DNA of 64,000 nt from a virus, in IMG/VR virus record IMGVR_UViG_3300043399_000524, positions 75,308 to 139,307 of that record; one strand, given 5' to 3'. The notes beneath the pieces are model-generated. The model saw only the letters and a program-made list of their open reading frames with translations, ran no database searches and was not told the origin of the DNA. The translations under genes were made by a program, and so were the position numbers. Positions 22,301 through 60,635 of this stretch are shown piece after piece. The number at the start of each line of letters is the position of its first letter. The first letter of the stretch is position 1.

Positions 22301-22328
22301 AGATAAATACTGAATATAGGAATAACAA

Positions 22329-22958: not shown

Positions 22959-22970
22959 GAGGAATTAAAA

Positions 22971-41093: not shown

Positions 41094-41117
41094 ATATTTT
41101 TTTTAATAAAGGAAGTT

Positions 41118-44091: not shown

Positions 44092-44127
44092 AAGTGATAA
44101 ATACTCTATTACTATAGGGTATTTACC

Positions 44128-44676: not shown

Positions 44677-46257
44677 ATGTCTATGATTGTTATTATGCCG
44701 GGCGGCTTTCATCCCTTTCACGCAGGTCATTATGCGTTGTACCAATCTGCATTAAAAGCCTTTCCTGGTGCAGAAGTTTATGTGGCCGCAACCAATGATA
44801 TGAGCGAAAGACCTTTCCCCTTCGCACTAAAAGAGAAACTAGCAAAGCTAGCAGGTGTTAAGCCGGGACATTTTGTACAAGTTAAAAGTCCATTCAAAGC
44901 GGAAGAAATTACAAAGAACTACGATCCAGAAAAAGATATATTAATATTTGTTCGAAGTGAAAAAGACAAAGACGAGAGTCCCAAACCAGGCGGCATTAAG
45001 AAAGATGGCACTCCTGCTTATTTCCAACCATGGACAGGAAAAGATGCTCAGCCATTTGCTAAACATGCATATTTTGCATATCTACCAACTGTTGAGTTTG
45101 GTCCTGGAATCACAAGTGCTACACAGATTCGTAAAGCATGGCCTACACTAAATGACAGACGCAAGACCGCACTTGTTATGAGTTTGTATCCTGGAGCACA
45201 AAAGAATCCTAAACTAGCACAAAATGTGGTTGGTATGTTTGACCAAGTTATGGGTGGACAAGTAAGTGAAGGTGTAGCAGAGAATAAAGAAAATAAATGT
45301 CCACCTGCTACACAAGATATTACATTAAATCTTAAAAATCGTCAAAAAGCAATTGATGAATATGGTTATGGTCCATTAAATCCTGACTTACCTAACACTA
45401 AGTTTTGGATGAAAAAAGTAGACGAGTGGAATCTAGATTCTGTAGAAGAAGCCAAACAAAGTTTGTGTGGTAATTGTGCAGCGTTTGATATACGTCAAGA
45501 TACATTAGATTGTATTGCTAAAGGTATAGATAGCGATAATCCCAGTGATGCTGAAGTTACAATTGATGCAGGTGAATTAGGTTATTGTAAGTTTTTAAAA
45601 TTCAAATGTGCTAGTCGCAGAACGTGTGACGCATGGGTAACCGGTGGACCACTTATAGACAAGAAAGACGTAACAGAGAGTACAGATAAAAAAGAAGCAA
45701 CTCGCAGAATACAAAAAATGTTAAATGATAAGTTTGGTGCTAATTTAGATATCGACGGTATCTTAGGACCACTTACATTACAATCAATAAACAAATTTAT
45801 GCCAAATGCCAAAGTAGGGCCTGCTGATGAACCTAATAAAACTACTGCTGTGCAAGGTAAAAAATATAAAGATGTATCAGAAGATAAAAGTGACGCAATT
45901 GCTAGAACAGTAAAAGACTTAACCAACCCACCCAAAGTCATGCAACATCGCAGCAAGCGTGATATGGAACGAGAAAAAGAATTACAATACAGAAACATTT
46001 CTAAAAGAACCAATGAAGGATTTGGTCCTGGATATCCTGAGACATACGAACAAGAAAACAAACCCTTCAAACACAAAGGTGGTTACCGTATCACTGATAT
46101 AACAAGTGAAGATGTTAACGAAGAACATGTTTATCGTGGTAATGCACCCGGTGAAGCAGTTAGAACTGCCAAACCCAAACGCATGCCTAGTCAAGTTGAA
46201 TTAAATAGAAAAAAGGGTATATTGCCTGAAAGTATCGATTACATAGACGAGATATAA
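44677..46257 (+). CDS. Multi-module protein: cytidylyltransferase-like (HIGH) domain, Cys-rich module, peptidoglycan-binding module
   Basis: PGGFHPFHAGH; CGNC...C...C; LDIDGILGPLTLQSINKF; xxE linkers. Confidence 0.7.
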   Translation: MSMIVIMPGGFHPFHAGHYALYQSALKAFPGAEVYVAATNDMSERPFPFALKEKLAKLAGVKPGHFVQVKSPFKAEEITKNYDPEKDILIFVRSEKDKDESPKPGGIKKDGTPAYFQPWTGKDAQPFAKHAYFAYLPTVEFGPGITSATQIRKAWPTLNDRRKTALVMSLYPGAQKNPKLAQNVVGMFDQVMGGQVSEGVAENKENKCPPATQDITLNLKNRQKAIDEYGYGPLNPDLPNTKFWMKKVDEWNLDSVEEAKQSLCGNCAAFDIRQDTLDCIAKGIDSDNPSDAEVTIDAGELGYCKFLKFKCASRRTCDAWVTGGPLIDKKDVTESTDKKEATRRIQKMLNDKFGANLDIDGILGPLTLQSINKFMPNAKVGPADEPNKTTAVQGKKYKDVSEDKSDAIARTVKDLTNPPKVMQHRSKRDMEREKELQYRNISKRTNEGFGPGYPETYEQENKPFKHKGGYRITDITSEDVNEEHVYRGNAPGEAVRTAKPKRMPSQVELNRKKGILPESIDYIDEI

Positions 46258-46313
46258 AATTTTTCGACACCCCTATTGCCATGTAAATAATCTTATCTTA
46301 TTAAGAGGAATTT

Positions 46314-47300
46314 ATGGCAACAAAGAAAAACGCATCAGAAACGGCAGCTAAGAAAACATCAAGTGCTGCTCCCAAAACTACAGCACCTAAGACTAAGAAG
46401 GCATCAAAAACTAAGGCGGCCGCCAAACAAGTAGCGGCTCAAGCTGTACCGGAAACTGCCAGCGTACAAACCAGTGAAAACAAAGAACAACTACAACAAG
46501 GTCAAGTTCAAGTCAATGTAGACTATCTACGTACTACCAGAGTACATATCGCAATGCCATGTTATGGTGGTATGCTAACCGAATCTACATTCATGTCTTT
46601 CATTAAGTGGGCAAATACAGCCCGTCAGCTTGGTATTGATTGGACACTAGAAACTATGGTCAACGAAAGTCTTATCAGTCGGGCCCGTAACACATTAACT
46701 GCTAAGTTCTTAGACATGCCCGAAGCAACACACTTATTCTTTGTTGATGCAGACATTGGTTGGGAACCATGGCATTTATTGGTTTTATTGAATCATGATG
46801 TTGATGTTATCGGTGGTTTATATCCAATGAAGACCATGCCCATTAAATGGGTTGTTAACGGATTTGAGGGAGCGGAAGAAGGGCCAGATGGTCTACAAGA
46901 AGTAAGTAAAGCAGGCACAGGTTTCTTGTTGATGAAGAAACATGTATTCGAAAAACTAAAATCGCACCCTGCAGTCAAGCAGTACAAGAACGATATCGGT
47001 CTAGATCCTAAGTACGACCAACATTTAAAGACTTACTTTGATACCGCGGTTCGTCAAAATCGTTATTACAGTGAAGACTGGACGTTCTGTGAAAACTGGC
47101 GTGATCTAGGTGGTAAGGTTTATGTTGACAAACGTGTCTTACTACGACACAGCGGTGCATATGTATTCTGTATGGAAAATCAACAACATTTGTTGAATAC
47201 TATAGGACCAATGTATCTGGAAGAACAAAAGAAAAAAGCAATAGAGCAACAAAAAATAGCTACTGATAATAACGGGAACGTTACTTTACAGACTACTTAA
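46314..47300 (+). CDS. GT-A fold glycosyltransferase with Lys/Ala-rich N-terminal tail
   Basis: IAMPCYGG, SLISRARN, FVDADIGW, YSEDWTFC..W. Confidence 0.8.
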   Translation: MATKKNASETAAKKTSSAAPKTTAPKTKKASKTKAAAKQVAAQAVPETASVQTSENKEQLQQGQVQVNVDYLRTTRVHIAMPCYGGMLTESTFMSFIKWANTARQLGIDWTLETMVNESLISRARNTLTAKFLDMPEATHLFFVDADIGWEPWHLLVLLNHDVDVIGGLYPMKTMPIKWVVNGFEGAEEGPDGLQEVSKAGTGFLLMKKHVFEKLKSHPAVKQYKNDIGLDPKYDQHLKTYFDTAVRQNRYYSEDWTFCENWRDLGGKVYVDKRVLLRHSGAYVFCMENQQHLLNTIGPMYLEEQKKKAIEQQKIATDNNGNVTLQTT

Positions 47301-47303
47301 AAT

Positions 47304-47324
47304 AGCCCCGAAAGGGGCTTTTTT
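47304..47324 (+). terminator. Intrinsic terminator
   Basis: AGCCCC-GAAA-GGGGCT-TTTTT. Confidence 0.9.
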
Positions 47325-47383
47325 GTGGCTATACATTAGAGTAGTTCTCTTAATATTCGATAAATATATAAAGAGGATTCAGC

Positions 47384-48112
47384 ATGGCAAACAATCAAAT
47401 AGAATATCCAATATCTGGAGCATATGACGGGAACATAATAACTACACCAGCTTTTATACCAGAGCCGCCGCCTCCTATAGATACAACTCCTACTATAGTT
47501 AAACCATTGGGTGTTGGGTCAGAATCTGAAACAAATATTATTCCTAAAAATATTAATTCAATGAGAAATCCAACAGGATTTGGTATTGTTTCGGTTACTG
47601 GTCAGGATTCCTTAATTGCTAATTCTTATATGGATCAGTTAAATATTGTGTCCGGTAACAATATCAATATAACAACTGATGCAGCTACAACTTCCGTAAC
47701 AATATCAGCAGAAACACTCAATGCAATTACTGATGTACTTCCCGGTACTGGAATCGGTGTAACTGGAAACAGCACTTCAGTTATAGTTACAAATACATTT
47801 ACTGAAATAGTATATTCAGGAGGAAATGCAATTGGCACACTCACCCCTAATAGAAACAACGGTACCGTTCAAAAATTTACATTAACAGGAAATATCGTAT
47901 TAGCTCCTCCTACCAATATGTTAGCCGGCCAAAGTTTGACATTAATACTTACTCAAGATTCTGTAGGAAACAGAATACTAGACGCAAATACTGCTTACTT
48001 GTTCGCTAGTGGATTTCAAACTTTGAGTACAGCATCAGGTGCAATTGATATGATAAACATTTTTACTGATGGCACAACATATTATGGTACGTTAACAGTG
48101 GGGTATTCATAA
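47384..48112 (+). CDS. Fibre-associated structural protein
   Basis: Beta-rich; C-terminal GQSLTLILTQD..G.R.L......F..G...LST..GAID motif. Confidence 0.55.
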   Translation: MANNQIEYPISGAYDGNIITTPAFIPEPPPPIDTTPTIVKPLGVGSESETNIIPKNINSMRNPTGFGIVSVTGQDSLIANSYMDQLNIVSGNNINITTDAATTSVTISAETLNAITDVLPGTGIGVTGNSTSVIVTNTFTEIVYSGGNAIGTLTPNRNNGTVQKFTLTGNIVLAPPTNMLAGQSLTLILTQDSVGNRILDANTAYLFASGFQTLSTASGAIDMINIFTDGTTYYGTLTVGYS

Positions 48113-48789
48113 TGCCTATAGGAGCCTCTCGATTAGGATTTTGGTTTGTACCTTCAAGTCCGCCGGATCCAGAAGATCCAGTAGAACAGTTCACAAATTT
48201 AGGTTTCGAAGAAGGAATATCTGGCTGGACGGTAGCTGCAACTAGGATTAGATTTAATGGTTTAAGCCTGTTAGCCGGGTTTCCTACTCCTACAGATCCA
48301 GATCCCCAAGGGGCCGGCGCCGGAGATGCTATCGTTGTAAACACAATGCCAACTTTTAGGTACCTTCTAAACACAGTTGACAAACCTCCATTAGGACAGG
48401 TGCAAAGTATGCATTTGATTATGGGTGATCCGCAAGAAGGTCAAGTAAATGCGTTCGGCGCCCTATACGGTCCAGCAATTTACAGTAATTTTTATGTCAA
48501 TTTCAATGCCGGCGATCAAGTGGCGTTTGATTGGAGAGCAAGACCATTGAGTGATGCTTATACTGTTTTTGCTTATATGATCGAAAAAGATACGGGTAAT
48601 GTTATCAATCTATTAAGATCATGGGGTCAAAGTTCTAGCTCAGGAACTTCGTGGACTACGACAACAGTAAATGTAACTACAACCGGAGCATACAAGTTTG
48701 TATTTGTAGCAGGTAGTTGGGACAGAACGGGCGGTACTATTATCGGCGGTGAAATGTTAATCGATAATATCAGAAGGATACAACCTTAA
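48112..48789 (+). CDS. Carbohydrate-binding-module-like protein
   Basis: FTNLGFEEG.SGW ... IDNIRR jelly-roll pattern. Confidence 0.5.
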   Translation: MPIGASRLGFWFVPSSPPDPEDPVEQFTNLGFEEGISGWTVAATRIRFNGLSLLAGFPTPTDPDPQGAGAGDAIVVNTMPTFRYLLNTVDKPPLGQVQSMHLIMGDPQEGQVNAFGALYGPAIYSNFYVNFNAGDQVAFDWRARPLSDAYTVFAYMIEKDTGNVINLLRSWGQSSSSGTSWTTTTVNVTTTGAYKFVFVAGSWDRTGGTIIGGEMLIDNIRRIQP

Positions 48790-48803
48790 TAAATATTTAA
48801 ACT

Positions 48804-50960
48804 ATGAATTTAAAAGAACTAGACTCCTTCAAAATTTCTGATGCTATTACTTTCCACGATAAGTTAAATCCTAAACTGTGGGCAGGTAATAAGTTGCGCC
48901 CTGAAGTTAAAAATCAACTAGAATCTATCGCAGAAGATTTTTTACAAGAAATGGGAATACATGATTTAGACGTTAGAGATATTACTATTTCTGGTTCTAA
49001 TGCAGCATACAGTTATAATAAACACAGTGATATTGACTTACATATTTTAGTCAACATGAATGATTTACCAAACAGTGACATTTATAAAGAGTTGTTTAAT
49101 GCCAAGAAAACAATATACAATGATTCACATGACATTACTATTCACGGTATTCCTGTAGAATTATATGTGGAAAATGCAGCAGAACCTGCAGTTACCTTAG
49201 GTGAGTACAGTATCAAAAATGACAAATGGTTACGAATTCCCACAAAACGCAGGGCAAATTTTGACCAAAAATCTACCAAGTTAAAATATGAGAAACTACT
49301 TGATATTGTTAAACGAGCATTAAAGTCTAAAGACTTAGATAAAATTCAAAAAGTTTTAAAGAAAATTAAACAATATAGACAAGCGGGATTAGATAAAGGC
49401 GGAGAGTTTGGTCCCGAAAATCTAGCATTCAAAGCATTGCGTAGTCAGGGCTGGATCACTAAATTATATGAATTACGTGATAAATTGCATAGCGAAAAGT
49501 TAAGCATTGAAAGCATGTATGCCAGCGAAGATTACAATCCAAATGGTCCACCACCTGGTCCTGAATTCAAACCAACTATGCCTAAGGGCACAGTCAAGGT
49601 AGACGTTAGTGACGTATATGATTGGTATAAACTAGGTCAACACATTAGCAATATGAAGGGCTTAGGGCAACATGACTTTGGTCAAGGACCACCTAGTACT
49701 ATATTATCTTTTGGTGATGAAGATACTGAACATCAATACATACAAGATTTAGAAAAAACAGGATTGACAACTACTGATGTTGACCCGCCCGCACATGATA
49801 AAATAAAAGGTCAAAAAACTGATCCAAGATTTAATGTCGAAGAAGCTAAAGTTCCTAATATTCGCCAACAAATAATTGATACTGTCAAAAAGTATGGTGG
49901 CGATATAAATGACTATTTTGTGCGATTCACAGATACCGATAAATTAGGATTCAGCGCAAAACAAGGGTTTGGTAAAACTCCAGATGTTGACAATCCTAAA
50001 TTTGATGTAGACTATATTGGTCAAGGTGAGGGTCGCAGAGCATTATGGTTTTATCCACTAAGTTATTATCTCAAGGACAAACGAGGTGTTTATGCCAGCG
50101 ATAATCCATATATTTGGTTAGTAAAATTAAAACCCAATGCATGGATGCAAACCGTTAAGCGTGGCGATAATAAAGTACAGCAAGCCCCTAAAGGTAAAGA
50201 GCGTGTGGGCATGTTAAGAATGAGTGATCCTCCCGCAGCTATCTTTTTTACATATGGATTTGACGTAGTTGGCCGCTATTATGACTATGCAGGGCAACAT
50301 AAAAGACACGGTGAAGTAAAAGGTCGTCCAGATCCTAGTTTCTTTGATAAAATCAGGGGTATTGACGAGGATTTTACAGGTCAGTACGCTAGTGAAAAAA
50401 CACCAGTTATAAGTCCATATGCAGGTGTTAAAGATAATCAATATCGTGGTGCAATATCAGAAAACTCAACATCAACGTTTGTCTATCATGTCACTCCCAC
50501 AAAGAATATAAAGTCAATAGCAAAGCAAGGTCTTACTCCGACAGTGGGTGATAGGGCAAGTCAAATTGCAGGTGAAAAATCTGGAATCTATGTATTCCCT
50601 GACAAAGTAAGCGCAGAAGATGCGGTTATGAATTGGTTAGGAGATGAATTCGATGACGAACCATTAACGATGCTAAAGATTGATATTTCTGGTTTAGAAA
50701 ACAACATCACTAAAGGTGCTGACTATGAATTGATAGTTGGTACTACAATTGAACCTAAACGAATCAAAAAAGTCAATATTCAATTAGAAGAAGCATCAGG
50801 TTATATACCCTCAGAAAAAGAAAAAAACGATCCTCGTTTTAAGACAGCATTAACAGTAGATATTAAGCCCTACACTATGAAGAAGGACGCTAAAAAGTTC
50901 GGAAACACAATAAGTCGTGCAGGTATACCCCCAACTCTCAAACCCTCAGGCAAATTCTGA
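48804..50960 (+). CDS. Multi-module protein: Pol-beta-type nucleotidyltransferase plus ADP-ribosyltransferase/Tpt1-like module
   Basis: ISGSNAAY...SDIDLH; later FVYHVTPTKNIKSIAKQGLTP...GIYVF...LKIDIS; xxE linkers. Confidence 0.7.
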   Translation: MNLKELDSFKISDAITFHDKLNPKLWAGNKLRPEVKNQLESIAEDFLQEMGIHDLDVRDITISGSNAAYSYNKHSDIDLHILVNMNDLPNSDIYKELFNAKKTIYNDSHDITIHGIPVELYVENAAEPAVTLGEYSIKNDKWLRIPTKRRANFDQKSTKLKYEKLLDIVKRALKSKDLDKIQKVLKKIKQYRQAGLDKGGEFGPENLAFKALRSQGWITKLYELRDKLHSEKLSIESMYASEDYNPNGPPPGPEFKPTMPKGTVKVDVSDVYDWYKLGQHISNMKGLGQHDFGQGPPSTILSFGDEDTEHQYIQDLEKTGLTTTDVDPPAHDKIKGQKTDPRFNVEEAKVPNIRQQIIDTVKKYGGDINDYFVRFTDTDKLGFSAKQGFGKTPDVDNPKFDVDYIGQGEGRRALWFYPLSYYLKDKRGVYASDNPYIWLVKLKPNAWMQTVKRGDNKVQQAPKGKERVGMLRMSDPPAAIFFTYGFDVVGRYYDYAGQHKRHGEVKGRPDPSFFDKIRGIDEDFTGQYASEKTPVISPYAGVKDNQYRGAISENSTSTFVYHVTPTKNIKSIAKQGLTPTVGDRASQIAGEKSGIYVFPDKVSAEDAVMNWLGDEFDDEPLTMLKIDISGLENNITKGADYELIVGTTIEPKRIKKVNIQLEEASGYIPSEKEKNDPRFKTALTVDIKPYTMKKDAKKFGNTISRAGIPPTLKPSGKF

Positions 50961-51005
50961 TTAAACGGTATTTTGATAAATACTATATAAATTCGGAATT
51001 TAGCT

Positions 51006-51794
51006 ATGAAAATCAATCAAATCATCAGTGAAACTACAACAGCGGGAGCAGTCGCACCCGTAAGTCAAAGTTTTGTTAAAATGTCAAGTCGCAATCCTGT
51101 CGTAAGCAGCAAAAAGGGTAATAATCTGTTGACTGGAAAAGTGACTAATAAAAAGTACGCAAACAGCGTTAACGAAAGCAAAATGAAAGACCTTGTAATG
51201 GATCTAAAGTCAGGTCCAGATGGTTTGACAGATGAAGAATTCAAAAAGAAATATAACAAGAGTAAAGCTGAAATGCGTAAAGCAATGCGTGATTCTGACA
51301 AAGAAATGAAGCAACAAAAGCCAGAACCAGTCAGTGAAGCAGATTTACACGAAGAAGATAAAATTATTGCTGTTGGTAAAGGTAACAAACTAAAGCCCGG
51401 GTTATTAGATAAGCCAATAAATTCAATGAACCCTACTGATACTGTCAAAGTTGATGTTCCATTTTTAATCAGACTATTAGAATTCGCAAGAGAAGATGCT
51501 AGTTCTGATATGGATCTACATGACCTAGCAGAAAAGTTAGTTGACAGAGGTCGTCGTGGTAAGACATTAACCATGAAAGACTATGAGTATGTTGTTGACA
51601 AACCCCAAGTTGACGAGAAAGCTGTCAGCAAAGCACAGCAAAGATTCATGGGCATGGTTCATGCTGTTCAAAAAGGCGAAATGAAGGCTCCTAGCAAAGA
51701 AGTAAGCAAAGTAGCTAAAGGCATGAGTAAGAAAGCAGGACATGACTATGCTGCAACTAAGCACAAGGGTCTACCAGAAAAGGTCAAAAAATGA
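51006..51794 (+). CDS. Capsid-targeting-sequence-bearing multi-module protein
   Basis: MKINQIISE start; VNE/VSE/VDE-delimited short modules; late box at 50975. Confidence 0.6.
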   Translation: MKINQIISETTTAGAVAPVSQSFVKMSSRNPVVSSKKGNNLLTGKVTNKKYANSVNESKMKDLVMDLKSGPDGLTDEEFKKKYNKSKAEMRKAMRDSDKEMKQQKPEPVSEADLHEEDKIIAVGKGNKLKPGLLDKPINSMNPTDTVKVDVPFLIRLLEFAREDASSDMDLHDLAEKLVDRGRRGKTLTMKDYEYVVDKPQVDEKAVSKAQQRFMGMVHAVQKGEMKAPSKEVSKVAKGMSKKAGHDYAATKHKGLPEKVKK

Positions 51795-53626
51795 GCAACA
51801 TTTTCAAAGGACTAAACGAAGCTATTGATATCGGCAGTATGCAAGCCGAGTATAGAACTCGCAAGGCAGAGATTGAAAAGAATGCTGAACAATACTCTAA
51901 AAAGTATAGCATTCCTACTGACGACCAATATTTTGCTCAGAAAGTTATGCAAGCGCAGGATCGTGAAAAAGATCAAGCTAGATTAGCACAGCAAAAGCAA
52001 CAATCGGCTGCTGCACAACAACAAAGTGTTGCTGGTGATAAACAAAATATTGAAGCACTAAAGCAACAATTGCAAAAGTTAAAGGGTCAACTTGATCCCA
52101 ACTATCAACAAAGTGACGATTACACATTCGTTAGTCAACAACAAAGAATTGCAAATGCTATTCAAGGTTTAGAAAAGCGTATCAGTGCTGCCAATGTATC
52201 AGAAGAAACAATACATGTAGGTCACCGTAACTCAAAAGGTGACTGGGTAAAAACCAGCACACATAGTAACTATGCTGATGCAGAAGCTGCAATGAAAGAA
52301 TTAGAGAAGGCTGGTAAGAAAGGTGTTCAACATCGTTATGACAACAAGGGCAATATTGATCCTGGTGCCATGATGACCGCAAGACCAGATTCTGGAATGT
52401 TAGAAGCAGAACAAGATTTAGGTCCTAAATATCAATCAGCAGTGGCAGCATTGAAACAAATGGCTAAACAAGGTCCGCGTAAAACTGTTTGGGATCCTGT
52501 CAAGCGTGTGTACAAGACTGTTCCAGTTAATCCACCTAAGAAAGAAGAAGGTGTGTCGGAAGGATCATCTACAGGCAATTTACTCTCAAGATCGGGATTC
52601 AAAGAAATTAGAAAAATAAAACACGGTGCTGAGTATAGCAATGGGCGTCAAGCAGTTAGTATTCAAATTGATCCATCGGATCCCGATTGGATTAATTGGG
52701 CGTTAGGTGAAATACGAGGAAAAAGAATAGATTGGATTGAAAGTGGTAATGATGATAAGCAAGAAGCATTGCACATCATAAAGACATTCACTAAGCAAGG
52801 TGTGGCAGAAGAGAAATGCCCAGAGTGCGGTGGACCAATGTTCAGCGATTTGATGTTAGCTGAAAAGAAAGATGCTTGCTACAACAAAGTTCGCAGTCGC
52901 TACAAAGTATGGCCGTCGGCTTATGCGTCGGGTGCTTTAGTTCAGTGCCGTAAAAAAGGTGCTAGTAACTGGGGCAACAAGTCAGAAAGCATGGCGAAAG
53001 GCTCGGAAAATATTCTTCCAAGAGGAACAGCCGTAACAGTCCTTCATAAAGGTAAACAAGTACCTGGTAAAATTGTTAGATATGATGCTGGTAAAGGTGG
53101 GTATTCAAACGCTTATGTAGTTGACATTGGTGAATATGAATCTATATTTGTGCCGACTAATAAAATTCAGCAAGGTGTGGCGGAAGAACAACTAGACGAA
53201 AAGTGCTGGGACACTCACAAGCAAGTTGGAATGAAAAAGAAGGGTGACAAAATGGTACCTAACTGTGTTCCAAAAGAGAGCGCAGTATTAGAAGGACTAC
53301 TTGAGTCTAAAAATTTAGATGAAAATCTACGCAAGTGGTTCAAAGAGAAGTGGGTTCGTTTCGGTCCTGACGGTAAAATTCGTGGCGCTTGTGCTAGGGG
53401 TGATGACAGTGAGGGTAAACCAAAATGTTTGCCACAAGCTAAGGCACATAGTTTAGGTAAGAAGGGTCGTAAGTATGCGGCTAGTAAAAAGCGCAGAGAA
53501 GATCCTAATCCAGAACGCAAAGGCAAAGCAATTAATGTTGCTACTAAAAAGAAAACAGATGAAGCACAAAATCTTAAACAACAAGCTGCCATTGCTATTG
53601 CGAAGAAAAAGGTAGACAAAAAATGA
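51791..53626 (+). CDS. Multi-module putative internal head polyprotein
   Basis: MSNIFKGLNE start; modules separated by VSE, EGVSE, QGVAE (x2), LAE, LDE; several small Cys-containing modules. Confidence 0.65.
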   Translation: MSNIFKGLNEAIDIGSMQAEYRTRKAEIEKNAEQYSKKYSIPTDDQYFAQKVMQAQDREKDQARLAQQKQQSAAAQQQSVAGDKQNIEALKQQLQKLKGQLDPNYQQSDDYTFVSQQQRIANAIQGLEKRISAANVSEETIHVGHRNSKGDWVKTSTHSNYADAEAAMKELEKAGKKGVQHRYDNKGNIDPGAMMTARPDSGMLEAEQDLGPKYQSAVAALKQMAKQGPRKTVWDPVKRVYKTVPVNPPKKEEGVSEGSSTGNLLSRSGFKEIRKIKHGAEYSNGRQAVSIQIDPSDPDWINWALGEIRGKRIDWIESGNDDKQEALHIIKTFTKQGVAEEKCPECGGPMFSDLMLAEKKDACYNKVRSRYKVWPSAYASGALVQCRKKGASNWGNKSESMAKGSENILPRGTAVTVLHKGKQVPGKIVRYDAGKGGYSNAYVVDIGEYESIFVPTNKIQQGVAEEQLDEKCWDTHKQVGMKKKGDKMVPNCVPKESAVLEGLLESKNLDENLRKWFKEKWVRFGPDGKIRGACARGDDSEGKPKCLPQAKAHSLGKKGRKYAASKKRREDPNPERKGKAINVATKKKTDEAQNLKQQAAIAIAKKKVDKK

Positions 53627-53742
53627 AAGATTACACATTTACAGCACAGTGCAAAAGTGGTCAAGTAAAAACTTTTAATTTTAAAGCAGAAGGTTATCTC
53701 GCTGCAAGAAGAAAGTTGCAAGAGTTAATAGAGGCAAATTGA
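53623..53742 (+). CDS. Small hypothetical protein (39 aa)
   Basis: MKDYTFTAQCKSGQVKTFNFKAEGYLAARRKLQELIEAN; ATGA overlap with the upstream stop. Confidence 0.45.
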   Translation: MKDYTFTAQCKSGQVKTFNFKAEGYLAARRKLQELIEAN

Positions 53743-53795
53743 ATGGATCAAGTTTGGGAATTCTATTGGCAATACAAAGGCTGCCCTCCTAACAG

Positions 53796-54512
53796 ATGAA
53801 GCCAGTATTAGTCTTAGAACATCAATTGCCCGAACGTTTGGCATACTTAGGAACATGGTTAACTAATCATGGCATACCTTATGTAGTCTTTAACGCTGAT
53901 ATTGACAAATCGTTCCCAGATAGTATTGAACCCTATTCAGCACTAGCAGTAATGGGTGGTGGTATGAGTGCTAACGATCCTCTACACACTAACCGGCAAG
54001 CTGAAATACTTATACTACAAGCAATCCTTAATGACATCCCTGTTATAGGTCATTGCTTGGGCGGTCAACTAATGAGCAAAGCATTAGGTGGCAAAATATC
54101 GAGTTCTCCTAAGCCTGAAATAGGATGGCAACCAATCAAATATGTGAACGAAGCTGCAAAAGAATGGTTTGGTGACGATCCAACGGACACAGTGATACAT
54201 TGGCATTATGAAAGTTTTAGTATTCCTAAAGGTGCTACATTACTAGCAAGTAGTGATGCATGTCCTAATCAAGCATTTAGTATAGGCAAACATCTAGCTA
54301 TGCAATTTCACATAGAAATTGACGAAAACAAGACAAAATCTTGGGTAGAAGATGTTGATAGTAAATGGGATCAGGCTAAGCAGGACTATGATACAGTTCA
54401 AAATAAAGAAGAAATATTGAATGGAATAAACACGCACTTATCAAAGCATCAAGCTACCGCTAATTCTATCTATACCAAATGGCTTGAGACCACAGAATGG
54501 GCCGTCAAATAA
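53796..54512 (+). CDS. Type 1 glutamine amidotransferase (stand-alone)
   Basis: MGGGMS, GHCLGGQL (nucleophile Cys), QFHIE (His-x-Glu). Confidence 0.9.
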   Translation: MKPVLVLEHQLPERLAYLGTWLTNHGIPYVVFNADIDKSFPDSIEPYSALAVMGGGMSANDPLHTNRQAEILILQAILNDIPVIGHCLGGQLMSKALGGKISSSPKPEIGWQPIKYVNEAAKEWFGDDPTDTVIHWHYESFSIPKGATLLASSDACPNQAFSIGKHLAMQFHIEIDENKTKSWVEDVDSKWDQAKQDYDTVQNKEEILNGINTHLSKHQATANSIYTKWLETTEWAVK

Positions 54513-55205
54513 TTAATCTGATAATAGTTTCCAACCCATGTGCGTTTTTGTTCTACCATGAATCATATTACTTAAACCGGCCTCTAAAAGATTATATTTA
54601 ATCAATAATTCTTGTCTTGTACAAACTTCTATTCTTCCATCATTGTGTTGAAAAGTATAAATGGTATGTTTATAGTTTGATGCTAGTTTTCCAACTTGGA
54701 GGGCCCGTTTTCTTTTTCTATCCTGGGTATTTTGTGCCCTAATACATGCATCACGATGTTTTTGTTTAAATTCAAGATCCAGAAATTTTCTTTTTACCCC
54801 ATCACTATTTTTCTTTTTTATATCAGGACGATTTTGAATTTCAGATTGAACCTTTTTTGAAGCAGTACTTTTCTTTTGTTTTACTTCAGGGCGATTTTGA
54901 ATTTCAATAGTTGAGCCGCCATCTCCTGATTCAGGTTTTAAATTAGCCCATATCTTCTTGCCATTTTCATCTCTAGCATTTACAATATCCCAAAGTTCAC
55001 TATAATACAATCCCCAATATTTTAATTCTTCTTTAGTTTGACACTCTTTAAGAATTTCTGTGGTTACATCATAACCGTGTTTTTTGATATGAGGCATCCA
55101 ATATTCTCCTGAACCTTTATATTTGTATGGATCTTTAGAAATAGTCTTACCTAAATATTTCAGTCCAGTAACATTGTGAATCTTTATGTATAGATAAATA
55201 GTCAT
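54513..55205 (-). CDS. GIY-YIG-like (Seg-type) homing endonuclease
   Basis: MTIYLYIKIHNVTGLKYLGKT...Y.GSG; NLKPE.GDGG; C-terminal HTH ending GWKL; true start 55205, not 55304. Confidence 0.8.
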   Translation of the reverse strand: MTIYLYIKIHNVTGLKYLGKTISKDPYKYKGSGEYWMPHIKKHGYDVTTEILKECQTKEELKYWGLYYSELWDIVNARDENGKKIWANLKPESGDGGSTIEIQNRPEVKQKKSTASKKVQSEIQNRPDIKKKNSDGVKRKFLDLEFKQKHRDACIRAQNTQDRKRKRALQVGKLASNYKHTIYTFQHNDGRIEVCTRQELLIKYNLLEAGLSNMIHGRTKTHMGWKLLSD

Positions 55206-55284
55206 GCTGGTGCTTCCTTTCATTGATTCAAGCATTAGAGTAGTCGGGGAGGTCAGAGTCTCGTGGACTACACTTTTATTTATC
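55203..55284 (-). ncRNA. Conserved structured endonuclease leader, copy 2
   Basis: Minus strand: GATAAATAAAAGT GTAGTC CAC GAG ACTCTGAC CTC CCC GACTAC TCTAA TGCTT GAATCAATGAAAGG AAGCA CCAGC ATG. Confidence 0.75.
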
Positions 55285-55318
55285 ATATATTCAGATAAAT
55301 ACATGATTGAGGCATAAA

Positions 55319-55759
55319 ATGTTAGCAGATAATTTAAAAATATTACTTGGTTCTACTTTTGTAGAGTATACAAAAATTCACGGATTTCATTTCAATATAG
55401 AAGGATCTAATTTCCCGCAATATCATGAATTTTTAAACACTTATTACAATGAAGTTTTTGAAACTATCGATACAATTGGTGAATATATTAGGATATTAGG
55501 ATCGTATACTCCCGGTAATTTATCAAGAATGATGGAGTTGAGTGTAGTTCAAGATCAATTAAAAATACCAAGAGCAGAACTCATGTTTGTTGAATTATTG
55601 CAAGACACTGAGATTATGATAGAATTAGTTAAAACTATATTTAATGAAGCAACTCAGGTTGAAGAACAATCTATAGCCAATTTTATGGCAGAACTACAAG
55701 ACTTGTACGGTAAGAAAGCATGGTTTATTCGCAGCATACTAAAAAAAGATCGTGAATAA
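55319..55759 (+). CDS. dps: Dps-family ferritin-like protein
   Basis: TKIHGFHFNIEG.NF..YHEFL..YY......D.IGEYIR.LG; late box at 55294. Confidence 0.85.
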   Translation: MLADNLKILLGSTFVEYTKIHGFHFNIEGSNFPQYHEFLNTYYNEVFETIDTIGEYIRILGSYTPGNLSRMMELSVVQDQLKIPRAELMFVELLQDTEIMIELVKTIFNEATQVEEQSIANFMAELQDLYGKKAWFIRSILKKDRE

Positions 55760-55950
55760 TGAAAGCTAAAGAAATCTACAAAGGATTTAAAACTTACACA
55801 GCTAAGATTTTAGTAAAGAATCCTAACTATTCTGTTCACATGGATGCGATTGTGTATGCCAAAGATGTTACACAGGCTCGCCAACTTATAAAGTTGCAGT
55901 ACAATGTAGATGACGGAAGAATCGGTACAATAAAAGAAATAAAACAATGA
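55759..55950 (+). CDS. Small hypothetical protein
   Basis: 63 aa, MKAKEI start, coupled on both sides. Confidence 0.6.
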   Translation: MKAKEIYKGFKTYTAKILVKNPNYSVHMDAIVYAKDVTQARQLIKLQYNVDDGRIGTIKEIKQ

Positions 55951-57287
55951 GAGCCAGTGAGTTTATCACAGAAGAAGCCAAAGCAATCAAAACTAAAGGC
56001 TTAACTTTAAAGTACGCATTCAATGACAGTGCGTTGCTTATGAAAGCGTTTGAACCTGTCACCAAAAGTCCATTAGCGTTCGTTAAGTTTGTAAAAGAAA
56101 AGAAAGAATTATATCCAGAGAATCTTTGGGTGCATGATGATTATCGTAGCCGCGGCATCGCAAAGACTATGTACGATACATTAAAGTCTGAAGGATATGT
56201 AATTAATAGAAGTCATGACCAGACCAAAGCAGGTAGTGGATTTTGGGATAAACATCGTGGTGAAGATGTGTATGTTTGGGAAGAAATAAATCCTGACATA
56301 AAAAATTATGATTTTAAGCATAAGCAAGAAATAGGTGATTATGTTTATACCGCAGAAGGTAGTCCTGCTGGACTTACTATTCGCTGTCTTGATAAAAAAG
56401 GGAATACAATAGGACGTGCCTCTTTTATGATTTATAAAAATCATTTAGAAAGCATGGATACTAAAGTAGCTTCAGAGTATCAAGGAAAGGGAATAGCCAG
56501 TACAATGTATGCTTATGCAAAAATGTTAGGTAATGATGTAAAGCCTAGCCCATATTTATTACCACCTGGTAAAAAAATGTGGGATGCTTGGAAAAAGTCC
56601 GGCGAGGCTAAACATATTATGCAGGCTAATGAAGAAGTACTTGACGAAATGCCTCTACCGGCAGACTGGGATCCTGCTCAATATCAACAAGGTACTACCT
56701 TCAAACAAAGATTAGCATACGCATTGGAAAGAGCAAAGAAATTAGGCACAGGATCAAGTCGTGTTGCTACAACCATTGAATATCAAGGTCGTCCTACAGT
56801 ATTAAAGATTGCTAAGAATCAAAAAGGTCTAGCACAGAACAGTGTTGAAGCAGACATATTAAGTGATGGATACGCAAGCCAATTAGGTATATTGATACCT
56901 ATCATTGACTATGATGAACAGAATCGTGAACCTACTTGGGTTCATACTGAAATGGCTACAAAGGCATCTGAGAAACAGTTGTGTAATATCATGGGTTGCG
57001 ATAATTTAGATCAATTAGTAAACATGGCTTGGGCTATTACTGGTAAGAAAACATATGTAGGTAACTATCAAAATTATGTAACCTTCTTACGCCAAAGAGG
57101 TAAGACGGACGAACAAATAGAAACAATGTCTGAATATGCTAACACATTAGCAGACTTAGCAACTTCATTTGATGTTGAACTGGGTGATTTTACTAGAGCA
57201 GCAAATTGGGGCATGTATAACGGTAAGCCAGTCATTATTGATGTTGGCTTCAATAGCAACGTTTTAAATCAGTATTACAAAAGATGA
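55947..57287 (+). CDS. GNAT-GNAT-protein-kinase-like multi-module protein with capsid-targeting-like N-terminus
   Basis: MRASEFITE; VHDDYRSRGIA and VASEYQGKGIA acetyl-CoA motifs; LGTGSSR, VLKIA, GDFTRAANWG, IIDVG kinase-like motifs. Confidence 0.75.
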   Translation: MRASEFITEEAKAIKTKGLTLKYAFNDSALLMKAFEPVTKSPLAFVKFVKEKKELYPENLWVHDDYRSRGIAKTMYDTLKSEGYVINRSHDQTKAGSGFWDKHRGEDVYVWEEINPDIKNYDFKHKQEIGDYVYTAEGSPAGLTIRCLDKKGNTIGRASFMIYKNHLESMDTKVASEYQGKGIASTMYAYAKMLGNDVKPSPYLLPPGKKMWDAWKKSGEAKHIMQANEEVLDEMPLPADWDPAQYQQGTTFKQRLAYALERAKKLGTGSSRVATTIEYQGRPTVLKIAKNQKGLAQNSVEADILSDGYASQLGILIPIIDYDEQNREPTWVHTEMATKASEKQLCNIMGCDNLDQLVNMAWAITGKKTYVGNYQNYVTFLRQRGKTDEQIETMSEYANTLADLATSFDVELGDFTRAANWGMYNGKPVIIDVGFNSNVLNQYYKR

Positions 57288-57343
57288 GAGCCACAGAATT
57301 TTTATCAGAACTATTTCAACCAGGAAAGAACACACTACCTTAG
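57284..57343 (+). other. 19-aa mini-ORF (MRATEFLSELFQPGKNTLP), possibly a truncated gene
   Basis: ATGA overlap with the upstream stop; N-terminus parallels MRASEFITE; ends at TAG inside a structured element. Confidence 0.55.
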
Positions 57344-57410
57344 GACCTTTGCGTTATAAAGTGTGAGCCGGGAACCCGGGCTTGAACATCAAATTCGCTA
57401 CTTGCTGTTC
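57331..57410 (+). ncRNA. Candidate structured RNA element
   Basis: CACA/TGTG plus CTTT/AAAG stems enclosing CTACCTTAGGAC; AGCC..GGCT GC-rich hairpin; GAACA/TGTTC hairpin with ATTCGCTAC loop. Confidence 0.4.
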
Positions 57411-58009
57411 TTAACAGGGTTCATTTTACATTTATCACCGTGCCATTGTAATATATTTGCGATGCCACCTTCAACCTTACAATGGATACAACACATTCTC
57501 CTTTTTGGTACACCTACTTGCCATAAAGAGTGATTTTTCTTATCCTCTTCTGACCATACCCATCCGCCTGTTGACCTACCCTTTAATACTTTTGGTTTTC
57601 TCACCTTACCTAATTTTAAATTAGATTCTTGTACTCCTTCACTTATTTTCTTTTTGTGTTCTTCGGTATGCGGTGTTATTTTGATACCCTTAACTCCGCC
57701 TCCTCTTAACCCATCTTCGGGTTTTAAATTAGCCCATTCGTTAGATTCTACAATGTTATTTTCAATGGAAAAATTTAAAGCAAATTCTTGTAGTTCTTTT
57801 TTGTTCGTGAATAGTTTGTACCATATCGTGTCAACTAATTTTCCGTGTTTTTCCAAATGCCTAGTCCAATAGGTGCCTGACCCTAAATATTTTATTGGAT
57901 TTTTACCGGTGGTTTTTCCAAAATATTTTAATCCAGTTATTTTATGTTGTTTTATGTATAAAAATGTTGGTTTGAAAACTCCATTCGGAGAATCGGAATA
58001 AATACTCAT
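57398..58009 (-). CDS. GIY-YIG-like homing endonuclease
   Basis: FKPTFLYIKQHKITGLKYFGKT...YLGSG; NLKPEDG; NUMOD3 HTEEHKKKIS; C-terminal CIHC...WHGDKCK. Confidence 0.8.
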   Translation of the reverse strand: MSIYSDSPNGVFKPTFLYIKQHKITGLKYFGKTTGKNPIKYLGSGTYWTRHLEKHGKLVDTIWYKLFTNKKELQEFALNFSIENNIVESNEWANLKPEDGLRGGGVKGIKITPHTEEHKKKISEGVQESNLKLGKVRKPKVLKGRSTGGWVWSEEDKKNHSLWQVGVPKRRMCCIHCKVEGGIANILQWHGDKCKMNPVKNSK

Positions 58010-58074
58010 GCTGGTGCTCCTTTATAGCATTAGAGTAGTTGGGCCGGCCAGCCGCGAACTACACTTTTATTTAG
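58007..58074 (-). ncRNA. Conserved structured endonuclease leader, copy 3
   Basis: Minus strand: CTAAATAAAAGT GTAGTT CGC GGCT GGCC GGCC C AACTAC TCTAA TGCT ATAAAGG AGCA CCAGC ATG. Confidence 0.75.
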
Positions 58075-58103
58075 TCCTAATAGGATATAATTTTGGAATA
58101 ACA

Positions 58104-58541
58104 ATGAAAAAAATAATAACAACAATTTTAATGCTAGTATCACTAACTGCTTTTGCACAAAAACAACCACAAGGTGTAACTTATGATGCACAAATCGTTC
58201 GAGTAAATGACGGGGACACTATAGTCATTTCAGCACCCTTTCTACCAGCACCATTAAAGCCAGAATTAGCTGTAAGGGTTTTTGGTGTTGATACTCCAGA
58301 AAAAGGATTCAGAGCTAAATGTCCTCAAGAAGATGCCAAAGGACAAGCAGCTACAAAATTCACTAAAGATGCAGTAGCAGCAGCACAAAAACGCCAAGTT
58401 GTATTATATGATTGGGATAAGTTCGGTGGTCGTGTGTTAGGAGATATTATTCTTAACGGACAAAGTTTACGTACCATGTTGATTCAAAACGGCTATGCCC
58501 GAGCATATTTCGGGGAAGCTAAACAGAGTTGGTGTAATTGA
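58104..58541 (+). CDS. Thermonuclease (SNase fold) with signal peptide
   Basis: MKKIITTILMLVSLTAFA signal; RVNDGDT, VRVFGVDTPE, DKFGGRVLG, GYARAY. Confidence 0.9.
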   Translation: MKKIITTILMLVSLTAFAQKQPQGVTYDAQIVRVNDGDTIVISAPFLPAPLKPELAVRVFGVDTPEKGFRAKCPQEDAKGQAATKFTKDAVAAAQKRQVVLYDWDKFGGRVLGDIILNGQSLRTMLIQNGYARAYFGEAKQSWCN

Positions 58542-58553
58542 TAAATATATATT

Positions 58554-59261
58554 ATGCGTTATACAGAATTTGTTACCGAACGAAAAAAGTCTAAAAAGAA
58601 AAGAAGTAAAAAATTAAGAAATTACTTCTTTCCTGGTTATGGATATTATGGTGTATTTGGTTCAGGTGAAGATTCTGGTGGCGATGGTGGCGGTGAAAGT
58701 GTTAATGAATCACCCGAAATAGAGTTAAGGAAGCGTTTGCCCTCCTTAAAGAAACATGATCGTACAACCATTGATGATCTGGTTCGTAAAGTTGCTTATA
58801 AACACAAAATATCTCACAAAGCCCTTGATGATTTATTTCAACGAACTTATAAAAAAACACCCTCTGATTGGATCAAAAATAAACTCGACGAAACTGACAA
58901 TGTAGAATGTGATTTAGAAAAAGAAATCGACAAATTTGCACAATGGACAGCTAAACGACTTAATCTTAAAAAAATTCCAAAGATAATACTTAGCCAAGAC
59001 ACTGAGGAAGCACAAACGAATCACCATACTGGAAGCCATCACATGGGTTCACACACAGTTTGGGTATACGCTAAGAACCGCAATTTGGTAGATATCCTTA
59101 GAACCGTTTTCCATGAATTAGTTCACGTAAGACAAGACGAATTGGGTATGATTAAGCCAGGTGACAGTTATCCCGGTAGCCCAATTGAAGCTATGGCAGA
59201 CATGTTAGCTGGAAAATTCATCAAAATTTACGGTGAAAAGAACCATCACATCTTTCAATAA
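58554..59261 (+). CDS. Zn-metallopeptidase-like multi-module protein with capsid-targeting-like N-terminus
   Basis: MRYTEFVTE; basic RKKSKKKRSKK; RTVFHELVHVRQ (HExxH) and downstream Glu in IEAMAD. Confidence 0.7.
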   Translation: MRYTEFVTERKKSKKKRSKKLRNYFFPGYGYYGVFGSGEDSGGDGGGESVNESPEIELRKRLPSLKKHDRTTIDDLVRKVAYKHKISHKALDDLFQRTYKKTPSDWIKNKLDETDNVECDLEKEIDKFAQWTAKRLNLKKIPKIILSQDTEEAQTNHHTGSHHMGSHTVWVYAKNRNLVDILRTVFHELVHVRQDELGMIKPGDSYPGSPIEAMADMLAGKFIKIYGEKNHHIFQ

Positions 59262-59284: not shown

Positions 59285-59881
59285 ATGATGATTAAACTAT
59301 TGGTCCCGTTACCCAAACAAGTCACTGTTGCATGTAGCGGTGGAGTGGATAGTATGGCTGTGGTTGACTTTCTAAAACGAAAGCACGATGTAACAATTGC
59401 TTACTTTCATCACGGTACAGAACACGGCGAAGAAGCATTCAAGTTTGTTGCAAATTATTGCACAGACCACAACTTGCCCATAATGTTCGGGACTATTCCT
59501 ATTGAAGAACGAACCAAAGATGAATCACAAGAAGAATACTGGCGCAGAAAACGCTATGATTTTCTGAGCAAGTGTGGGCCAGTTATCACTTGTCATCATT
59601 TGGATGATTGTGTAGAAACATATATTTGGTCAGCGTTACATGGCACACCCAAAGTGATTCCCATGATTCGTAACAATGTATTGCGCCCATTCTTAACTAC
59701 ACGCAAAGAAGAATTCAAGTCTTGGTGCTTGCGTCACAATGTACCTTGGATTGAGGATCAATCAAATCAGGATACCAAATACATGCGTAACTATGTCCGT
59801 AATATGTTAATGCCACATGCATTACACGTTAACCCAGGCTTGCATACGCTCGTCCGTAAAATAGTTGAAAAAACTAGATAA
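59285..59881 (+). CDS. tilS: tRNA(Ile)-lysidine synthase-like PP-loop protein (minimal)
   Basis: ACSGGVDSM, RRKRYDFL, HHLDDCVET, RPFL, WIEDQSN...RNYVR; extended -10 TGCTATAAT upstream. Confidence 0.85.
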   Translation: MMIKLLVPLPKQVTVACSGGVDSMAVVDFLKRKHDVTIAYFHHGTEHGEEAFKFVANYCTDHNLPIMFGTIPIEERTKDESQEEYWRRKRYDFLSKCGPVITCHHLDDCVETYIWSALHGTPKVIPMIRNNVLRPFLTTRKEEFKSWCLRHNVPWIEDQSNQDTKYMRNYVRNMLMPHALHVNPGLHTLVRKIVEKTR

Positions 59882-60635
59882 TTAGTTTCCAACCACGATG
59901 CGAGATCGCCTTCCTTTTAATCAACCTACATACTAGTACTTTACTTAGATTATATTTTTTAATAAAATCATATCTTGTTAGTGTCTCACGTATTCCGGAG
60001 TCGTGAACCCAATTATATAATGTGTGGTCAAAACTTGAATTGTTACTGCCAGTCGTTACACTACTCATTAATTGTCTGAATTCCGTTGTTGATGTTGCCA
60101 ATCTTAGTCCATCTAATCTTTTCTTCCTGACAACCGGATTCTTCCACGAAGAAGTTGTCATTTTCTTGTTTTTTTCTTTATAGTCCGAGTCGTTTTTTAA
60201 TATAGTTTGTTGCGAACTCATTTTTTCTTTGGCCTCAGGAGTACCCAATGCTTTTTTGATTGCGTTACCTCTTTTGATTTTTACTTGAGGATCACTCCAA
60301 CTATCTCTTAATTTTTGTTTGGATATTTCAGAGAATTCTGTCTGGCCGCCAGCAGTTTCTGGTATTATATTGGCCCATATTTTATTCCCATAATCATCCA
60401 CTGAAGTTGTTATTCTCCATAGATTGCTGTAATATCTGCCGATATCGCTTAATTCTTGTTTATTTGATGTAACGAATATGATTTCTGTCCGAATGGAAGT
60501 TCCGTGTATTTTTAGGTGCTTGATCCAATCGAGACCAGATCCTAAATATTTATGTGGATTTTTCTTTTTAGTTTGACACAAATATTTCAACCCAGTAATA
60601 TTATGGGTCTTAATCATCAAATAATAAATAGTCAT
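59874..60635 (-). CDS. GIY-YIG-like homing endonuclease (paralog of 54513)
   Basis: MTIYYLMIKTHNITGLKYLCQT...YLGSG; NIIPETAGG; C-terminal HTH ending GWKL. Confidence 0.8.
   Translation of the reverse strand: MTIYYLMIKTHNITGLKYLCQTKKKNPHKYLGSGLDWIKHLKIHGTSIRTEIIFVTSNKQELSDIGRYYSNLWRITTSVDDYGNKIWANIIPETAGGQTEFSEISKQKLRDSWSDPQVKIKRGNAIKKALGTPEAKEKMSSQQTILKNDSDYKEKNKKMTTSSWKNPVVRKKRLDGLRLATSTTEFRQLMSSVTTGSNNSSFDHTLYNWVHDSGIRETLTRYDFIKKYNLSKVLVCRLIKRKAISHRGWKLII

Follow-up and report, generated by a model that had tools for sequence, protein, structure and literature searches.

Candidate capsid-addressed cargo polyproteins with hydrophobic-x-Glu joints in an uncultured giant T4-type phage

T-even phages place diverse internal proteins in their heads, each headed by a capsid-targeting sequence (CTS) that is conserved and is cut by the prohead protease gp21 (PMC3012670, PMC9026906). 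In the T4 CTS the upstream residues are responsible for targeting and residues 8 and 10 direct processing, which is blocked by Asp at residue 10 (PMC9026906). T4 Alt is an ADP-ribosyltransferase that is packed into the head and injected. Its N-terminal propeptide has 7 residues, and gp21 trims the protein at either end (PMC9026906). In phiKZ-type phages the prohead protease cuts propeptides after Glu at several A/S/G-x-E sites (PMC10052503). The polyvalent proteins are multidomain effectors proposed to be packaged, and their processing, if any, would be by a zincin peptidase of their own (PMC5512222; Iyer, Burroughs, Anand, de Souza, Aravind 2017). Here we describe a group of genes in a 64,000-nucleotide stretch of viral DNA (IMG/VR record IMGVR_UViG_3300043399_000524, positions 75,308 to 139,307; hereafter the window) that encode chains of unrelated modules, several of them starting with a leader that resembles the T4 CTS and many of them joined at hydrophobic-x-Glu motifs. 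Capsid-addressed cargo chains with protease sites at their joints are in our judgement the best explanation, one that we regard as probable rather than secure.

The window is the final 64 kb of a linear 139,307-bp contig with a CheckV completeness of 39%. Because the tail sheath has its nearest relatives in the jumbo phages Atu_ph07, Phosso and PA5oct (~46% identity), and because homologues of window genes are present on contigs of 338-352 kb, the source is assigned by sequence kinship to an uncultured freshwater giant T4-type myovirus of ~350 kb, known from this fragment. Megablast of the region against cultured phages gave no useful match. The comparisons below draw on 3.2 Mb of related IMG/VR loci, fetched with four window proteins and containing 2990 unique open reading frames (ORFs).

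On sequence grounds, what we describe would not be a new kind of system but a variation on the internal-protein system of T4. The leader patterns are alike (MKTYQEFIAE in T4; MRASEFITE and MRAREFIAE in the contig) and end in hydrophobic-x-Glu. Behind the leader stand variable and unrelated bodies, expression is late-type (in the contig judged from a sequence motif only) and a gp21-family protease is present, in the contig's case in relatives. The contig cargo differs from T4 IPI-III in that it is often a multi-module chain with further minimal cut motifs, and in that it includes GNAT, kinase-like, ADP-ribosyltransferase (ART)-like and nucleotidyltransferase folds. In addition, the contig leader has one residue fewer, each genome carries 5-13 leader genes and the phage is an uncultured jumbo phage of ~350 kb related to Atu_ph07 and PA5oct. 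A literature search, incomplete in coverage, found no prior description of leader-tagged, protease-jointed polyproteins in T4-type phages.

The leader peptide

The preliminary description of the window quoted seven N-termini, all of which were verified at their positions (55947, 58554, 57284, 51006, 51791, 48804 and 22329). Its assignment of a start like the T4 capsid-targeting one holds for proteins C (51006), D (51791), E (55947) and F (58554) and for the protein encoded at 22329; it does not hold for proteins A (44677) and B (48804), which have no nine-residue leader. The leader logo spans nine residues, M-R/K-A/I-x-E/Q/D-F/I-I/L/V-x-E, and its end, with a hydrophobic P3 and Glu at P1, is the gp21 cut motif. 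T4 IPII and IPIII both begin MKTYQEFIAE (read from NC_000866) and have the Phe, the hydrophobic P3 and the P1 Glu in common with the contig leader. Leaders of the T4 CTS pattern that end in (L/I/V)-x-E head five window genes and four upstream genes; the further leader genes 5' of the window are at contig positions 26543, 40326, 40718 and 41982.

N-termini were searched with the pattern M-[KR]-x(2-6)-h-h-x-E (h, hydrophobic), the expectation being taken from the internal frequency of the same pattern. It is found at the N-terminus of 9 of the 180 contig ORFs against 0.45 expected, one of the nine, an amidotransferase-like ORF at 53796, being probably a chance match. In the related loci it heads 214 of the 2990 unique ORFs against 10.7 expected (~20-fold). 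As an exact DNA pattern, the leader occurs eight times in the contig in the forward orientation and not at all in reverse (reversed control, 0), and near-complete relatives have 5-13 matches each against 0-1 for the reversed control. A variable-gap DNA pattern recovered the three T4 ip genes, which served as positive control; it was noisy and missed the 12-residue leaders of XacN1 and Slicko01. Leader codons differ between paralogues at synonymous sites, thus it is the peptide that is conserved. Leader genes follow one another in tandem, the stop codon of one overlapping the start codon of the next.

Two groups of leader proteins lie upstream of the window. Three paralogues of ~130 residues start MRAREFI(A/T)E, end in a basic F-K-G-Y-K-R/K-K and surround a gene for 292 residues (contig 40326-42383; L003:326-2383). 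A leader protein of 123 residues at contig 26543-26914 (L002:6543-6914) gives a weak hint of an Exotoxin-A-catalytic (ART) domain (E 0.2) and may, from this similarity, be a second small ART-like cargo.

Joints between modules and a candidate protease

Junctions were located by taking modules that stand directly behind a leader in one protein and aligning them where they are internal in longer proteins. In 298 of 652 unique internal junctions the end of a hydrophobic-x-Glu coincides with the joint (45.7% against a background of 2.3%, 20-fold), and in 59% it lies within one residue of the joint (background 6.8%). Collapsing similar upstream contexts left 413 clusters, 151 with the motif exactly at the joint and 254 with it within two residues. 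Other motifs behave differently: hydrophobic-x-Asp is enriched 1.3-fold, hydrophobic-x-Gln 0.1-fold, hydrophobic-x-Lys 0.5-fold, non-hydrophobic-x-Glu 1.7-fold, phiKZ-type [AGS]-x-E 1.8-fold and the reversed motif 0.9-fold. The lack of enrichment of hydrophobic-x-Asp has its likeness in the T4 CTS, where Asp at the cleavage position blocks processing (PMC9026906). The earlier claim that the modules are joined at hydrophobic-x-Glu is borne out by the enrichment at joints and by the junction Glu, which is kept in most aligned homologues.

The internal sites are distinct from the ends of leaders. A full leader is retained internally in only 12 of the 652 junction contexts, and a hydrophobic P4 is seen in 36 of 286 internal sites, compared with F or I at P4 in nearly all leaders. 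Internal sites have L/V and not I at P3, D/N/E and not T/S at P2 and acidic or polar residues from P6 to P4. Judged by this composition, the internal sites are the minimal motif without the targeting part and not relic leaders, which parallels the division of the T4 CTS into targeting and processing residues. Module order is shuffled among phages: the homologue P0130 is leader-GNAT-GNAT-ART, compared to leader-GNAT-GNAT-kinase in protein E.

The head-internal proteins of phiKZ, 201phi2-1 and SPN3US are likewise cut after Glu at maturation by a protease of the same superfamily. These phages differ in their A/S/G-x-E motif, which at the joints studied here is enriched just 1.8-fold against 20-fold for hydrophobic-x-Glu, and in their long discarded propeptides (20-254 residues), where the contig proteins would have a 9-residue leader and several retained products.

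PF03420 (Peptidase_S77, the gp21 family) was found in Alishewanella phage Slicko01, which has five leader genes in tandem (L008), and in Xanthomonas phage XacN1, both cultured phages with such leaders, and in four of five large relatives that carry homologous modules. In the large relatives, the protease gene lies between the genes for an acidic core-like protein and for a 366-residue scaffold-like protein dense in hydrophobic-x-Glu, as in T4. PA5oct gp333, a protein of 73 residues that starts MKINDIITE, is encoded between portal and protease and is annotated as virion-detected by electrospray ionisation tandem mass spectrometry. This is the sole experimental hint, and it concerns a small protein in core position, not a polyprotein. 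PA5oct also has two genes annotated as 'head maturation protease' (84079-84711, L216; 180349-181020, L217), both detected by mass spectrometry; the second adjoins the gene for the leader-like gp213, which was undetected by mass spectrometry. The XacN1 paper deals with excised gel bands only and nowhere mentions ORF170, a leader-bearing homologue of protein E; T4-GC119, sought in the cyanophage supplement, was not found there.

Proposed packaging and cleavage, and alternative explanations

We propose that the leader of nine or ten residues acts like the T4 CTS and docks the precursor on the scaffolding core during prohead assembly. A gp21-family protease encoded off the contig would cut after Glu in hydrophobic-x-Glu and remove the leader. 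The same protease would cut the minimal motif at the joints, giving several products per precursor in fixed proportion inside the head. By analogy with T4 IPI-III and Alt, the products would remain alongside the DNA and pass into the host when infection takes place. Such a cargo would be mixed, comprising two GNATs, a T7-kinase-like fold, a Tpt1/KptA-like ART fold, two nucleotidyltransferases, a zincin-motif domain and many basic Cys modules. The enzyme-like modules, as modelled, would suit host takeover or counter-defence, and the small basic Cys modules are by their sequence more likely DNA-binding. The leader, the joint motif and the protease of the relatives fit the T4-type packaged and cut cargo of the preliminary description; two of its polyproteins are without leader and one of its genes is a remnant.

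A number of points weigh against this proposal, for which all the evidence is comparative and drawn from sequence. The 139-kb contig has no gene for a gp21-type protease and none for a gp23-type or other major capsid protein, because it is a fragment; the cognate protease of the window phage is thus predicted from relatives, and one 99%-complete relative gave no PF03420 match. Proteins A and B are without leader, which leaves their route to the head unexplained, and the cyanophage homologues of C and D have the joints and no recognisable leader. Motif and module boundary do not always coincide. Folded modules also contain hydrophobic-x-Glu, in some cases conserved (E96 of B and E519 of D are examples), therefore the motif alone does not define a cut, and it is missing from some module boundaries, such as those close to residue 400 of D and to residue 235 of B. 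For the effector roles of the modules, folds are the only indication. Nothing in the whole contig matched PF18762 (Kinase-PolyVal) or PF18818 (MPTase-PolyVal) at E <= 10.

This mismatch between motifs and boundaries would suit an explanation that we think unlikely, in which the proteins are packaged and lose the leader with their internal joints uncut, as multidomain 'polyvalent' proteins whose joint motif is a decaying relic of tandem-gene fusion. The leader genes overlap in tandem and a small deletion could fuse two of them, keeping the last residues of the leader; a whole leader does stand in the 12 internal contexts noted above, and the N4 virion RNA polymerase is one known case of a packaged multidomain effector that stays intact (PMC5512222). 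Polyvalent proteins resemble the contig proteins in combining unrelated effector domains (ART, GNAT, kinase, zincin) in one polypeptide, in their predicted packaging and delivery and in their fast shuffling, and at least two unrelated effector-type domains are found per polypeptide in E (GNAT, GNAT, kinase-like) and B (nucleotidyltransferase, ART fold and others). The resemblance ends at the joints of the contig proteins, which bear the head-protease motif, at the hallmark Pfam families, which are unmatched, and at the T4-type leader, which is outside the definition of polyvalent proteins; the single pointer to Kinase-PolyVal was a language-model lead. A relic would also have to account for internal sites that differ in composition from leader ends and yet keep hydrophobic-x-Glu across 413 upstream contexts, and for the exclusion of Asp and Gln at P1. 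The tandem double hydrophobic-x-Glu before the kinase-like domain fits selection for cutting better than a relic.

It seems to us very unlikely that the leader is no capsid address and the proteins act in the cell late in infection, the leader being the substrate of another Glu-specific protease, a tag for degradation or localisation, or a context for translation initiation. This would agree with a contig that has no protease gene, with proteins A and B that work without leader and with ordinary metabolic neighbours (the amidotransferase-like 53796 and the Dps-like 55307). The leader closely fits the experimentally defined T4 CTS, including its targeting and processing residues, and occurs together with a gp21-family protease in complete genomes; the PA5oct leader protein was detected in virions, the late-type box is common to the tail genes, and the synonymous codon variation speaks against a signal in the RNA. 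Also hardly probable in our view is a role of packaged and cut products in head assembly or DNA condensation, as scaffold-like or histone-like proteins and not as host-directed effectors. C and D are dominated by Lys/Arg-rich Cys modules common to the late genes between gp15 and gp16 of cyanophages, and T4 heads retain basic internal proteins and scaffold peptides, with assembly slowed by loss of IPIII (PMC9026906). An assembly role is not obvious for GNAT, kinase-like, ART-fold and nucleotidyltransferase modules, and such enzymes as are known from phage heads or from the early phase of infection (T4 Alt, T7 kinase) target the host.

If the window encodes capsid-addressed chains that are cut at their joints, T4-type capsids could have a general plug-in cargo grammar of one leader and any number of modules separated by the minimal motif; we regard the case for and against such a grammar as evenly balanced. 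A single address would then bring into the head, in fixed proportion, a freely reshuffled set of enzymes and DNA-binding peptides, to be released as separate proteins at maturation, and the system would be the phage counterpart of retroviral Gag-Pol. Gag-Pol similarly has one targeting part, which takes a single precursor into the immature particle, and a viral protease that cuts it there to give separate enzymes in fixed proportion; it differs in being unrelated in sequence and evolution, from another realm, and in that its targeting part is a structural protein. Judging from sequence, the system seems to be widely distributed among uncultured giant phages of freshwater and marine origin, with a leaderless form in T4-like cyanophages. 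Were the chains cut as predicted, the protein cargo delivered by T4-type phages would greatly exceed in variety the handful of internal proteins known from T4. The cargo would evolve by module swaps at protease sites, allowing quick change in host takeover or counter-defence. The leader together with hydrophobic-x-Glu joints would serve as a search rule for injected effectors in metagenomic phages, and the grammar suggests a natural design for multi-protein loading of T4-based delivery particles.

Individual proteins, late-type boxes and neighbouring genes

The genes for proteins A to F and the gene at 22329 are on the plus strand. Protein A (526 residues, 44677-46257), without leader, starts directly with the nucleotidyltransferase strand. 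Its modules are an HxGH nucleotidyltransferase (44677-45282), a Cys-rich 'CPPATQ' module (45283-45678), a peptidoglycan-binding-like module (45679-45882) and C-terminal pieces, and its junction Glu codons end at 45270, 45282, 45678 and 45882 (E198, E202, E334 and E402). The leader Glu of 20 leader-bearing homologues aligns to E202, which is kept in 47 of 65 alignments. The N-terminus matches Pfam CTP_transf_like at 21.1 bits against a cut-off of 21 bits and is PPAT-like (E 0.02).

Protein B (718 residues, 48804-50960, phrog_36119) has a five-residue M-N-L-K-E start in place of the nine-residue leader. It comprises a putative Pol-beta-type nucleotidyltransferase (~48819-49508), a module without assignment (49509-49844), a 175-residue module (49845-50369), a 31-residue piece (50370-50462), the ART-fold module (50463-50792) and a 55-residue tail (50793-50957). 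The joints are conserved at E347 (24/25), E522 (14/14), E553 (14/15) and E663 (40/48). Homologues consisting of leader plus module begin at E347, the C-termini of standalone ones map to E522, and in the homologue P0122 a leader stands directly ahead of the ART-fold module. The N-terminal match to NTP_transf_2 (E 0.003) is below the cut-off; the N-terminus also has the G-S...D-x-D signature. Residues 554-663, modelled with a predicted local distance difference test score (pLDDT) of 73.8, match the fold of the NAD lobe of KptA/Tpt1 (E 1.2e-5, 26-28% identity, TMq 0.58). Bacterial ART toxins rank next; the match covers the NAD lobe only, and sequence by itself gives E 0.16. Described in general terms, B would be like T4 Alt in being a late head-associated enzyme of the ART superfamily, and its start is likewise very short. 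It differs in that its ART-fold module has only ~110 residues, resembles the Tpt1/KptA NAD lobe and not Alt, and is one of about six modules.

Protein C (262 residues, 51006-51794; leader MKINQIISE, 51006-51032; GATAAATA at 50975-50982) has joints ending at 51176, 51338, 51353 and 51617, the last followed by a C-terminal DUF3008-like module (51618-51791). The joint residues are E57 (kept in 31/33), E111 (24/25), E116 (24/24) and E204 (4/4), and in the S-CAM22 homologue the DUF3008-like module likewise begins after hydrophobic-x-Glu. Protein D (611 residues, 51791-53626) starts with a 10-residue leader variant, MSNIFKGLNE (51791-51820). A coiled, low-complexity N-terminal half precedes a string of small basic Cys modules with joints ending at 52810, 52864, 53200 and 53323. 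Conservation at these joints is 77-89% (E340 30/39, E358 68/76, E470 50/59, E511 72/84); E340, E470 and E511 are junctions anchored by leaders, and the E470 joint is where ~28 standalone homologues begin. Small basic modules containing Cys, rather than enzymes, make up most of C and D. A tblastn search with residues 330-600 of D matched 376 phage records, mostly T4-like cyanophages, in which the late genes located between gp15 and gp16 consist of successive C/D-type basic modules with hydrophobic-x-Glu at the joints, such as PSSM2_123 of P-SSM2 (L005, 105913-106728) and gp139 of S-CAM22 (L006, 94186-96096).

Protein E (446 residues, 55947-57287) follows its leader MRASEFITE (55947-55973) with a first GNAT (55974-56282), a second GNAT (56283-56648) and a protein-kinase-like domain (56649-57284). 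Its joints E112 (kept in 22/23) and E234 are anchored by homologues made of leader plus second GNAT and of leader plus kinase-like domain. Pfam places the GNAT above cut-off (Acetyltransf_7, 34.4 bits, cut-off 27; Acetyltransf_1, 33 bits, cut-off 20.7) and the second copy, residues 151-189, below it. The kinase-like domain has no Pfam match. Its AlphaFold2 model has a pLDDT of 91.9, and all 89 PDB matches found by Foldseek at E <= 1e-3 are kinases or aminoglycoside phosphotransferases, with template modelling scores of only 0.32-0.44; its BFVD matches include T7-type phage kinases as well as RaK2 and CBB proteins. K52, D179, N185 and D197 (the conserved Lys, D-x5-N and D-x-G) are invariant in 69 sequences. 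Proteins made of leader plus kinase-like domain include XacN1 ORF170, a Slicko01 protein and more than 100 database proteins. Hydrophobic-x-Glu stands directly before the domain in 112 of 115 standalone homologues, often as two tandem sites. PDB sequence searches with A, B and E gave weak hints only.

The gene that follows E, at 57284-57343 (plus strand), does start MRATEFLSE, as had been noted, and proves to be a remnant of 19 codons ending in TAG; an intact homologue of 374 residues is found at L010:10996-12120. The remnant abuts a minus-strand homing-endonuclease-like (GIY-YIG-like) gene at 57398-58009, the insertion of which probably, to judge from this arrangement, destroyed it. The phage reportedly carries a suppressor tRNA. 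Amber read-through would gain only 13 residues before a TGA, and the product would still be a remnant.

Protein F (235 residues, 58554-59261; leader MRYTEFVTE, 58554-58580; GATAAATA at 58540-58547) contains a Lys/Gly-rich module (58581-58709), a 61-residue piece (58710-58892) and a C-terminal domain with HExxH at 59112-59126. At least seven homologues place the leader directly before the module that follows E52. This residue, in the joint peptide E-S-V-N-E, is kept in 15/17 and E113 in 24/30. The C-terminal domain has the HExxH motif without a family match (YodL hint, E 0.06). The enzymes named in the preliminary description accordingly stand as GNATs, kinase-like fold, ART-like fold and cytidylyltransferase-like domain, with the peptidase reduced to the HExxH motif and the nucleotidyltransferase below threshold.

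Outside this region, a late protein of 209 residues with the 10-residue leader MKSLKQYIVE is encoded at 22329-22958, with GATAAATA at 22302-22309; it has no homologue among the fetched related loci. The gene is flanked by those for an acidic protein of 161 residues (21815-22300) and an acidic low-complexity protein of 754 residues (22971-25235), the latter with ~30 hydrophobic-x-Glu sites. From composition and position these may be head core or scaffold proteins; their only family matches (21815-25235) are phrog_16202 and phrog_24078.

The T4 late box TATAAATA shows no enrichment (3 matches against 9.8 expected) and was rejected as the late promoter. GATAAATA is enriched, with 17 matches against 5.4 expected, a number reached in none of 100 shuffles. 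It lies 15-35 nucleotides 5' of the tail tube gene and of the genes at 22329, 25331, 44128, 47384, 51006, 55307 and 58554. The promoter-like box at 44096-44103 (plus strand) heads the operon 44128-44286-44677, and sister boxes are at 47359, 50975, 55294 and 58540. Since the box also precedes the tail tube gene (18273) and a structural gene for 1186 residues (25303), the cargo genes are placed by this motif in late-type transcription units, several of them merely downstream in operons without a box of their own. Their earlier designation as late-promoter genes is thus kept in terms of GATAAATA, and not of the T4 box.

The cargo genes are grouped between 44677 and 59261 as originally described, in a cluster that is interrupted by unrelated genes at 46314, 47384, 48112, 53796, 55307 and 58008 and by two endonuclease genes. 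Three free-standing endonuclease-like genes on the minus strand (54513-55304, 57398-58009 and 59874-60635) lie among the cargo genes and have an N-terminal motif in common. A gene of the staphylococcal nuclease family (58008-58541, Pfam 42.5 bits), with a signal-peptide-like start at 58106, keeps its position between leader genes in L009, L010, L013 and L014. Just 5' of the cargo region, DnaJ-like (40278-41093) and ClpA/B-like AAA+ (41118-43391) genes were recognised by eye. A gene for a subtilase of 670 residues (Peptidase_S8, 75 bits) lies at 2137-4149, within the region of virion genes.

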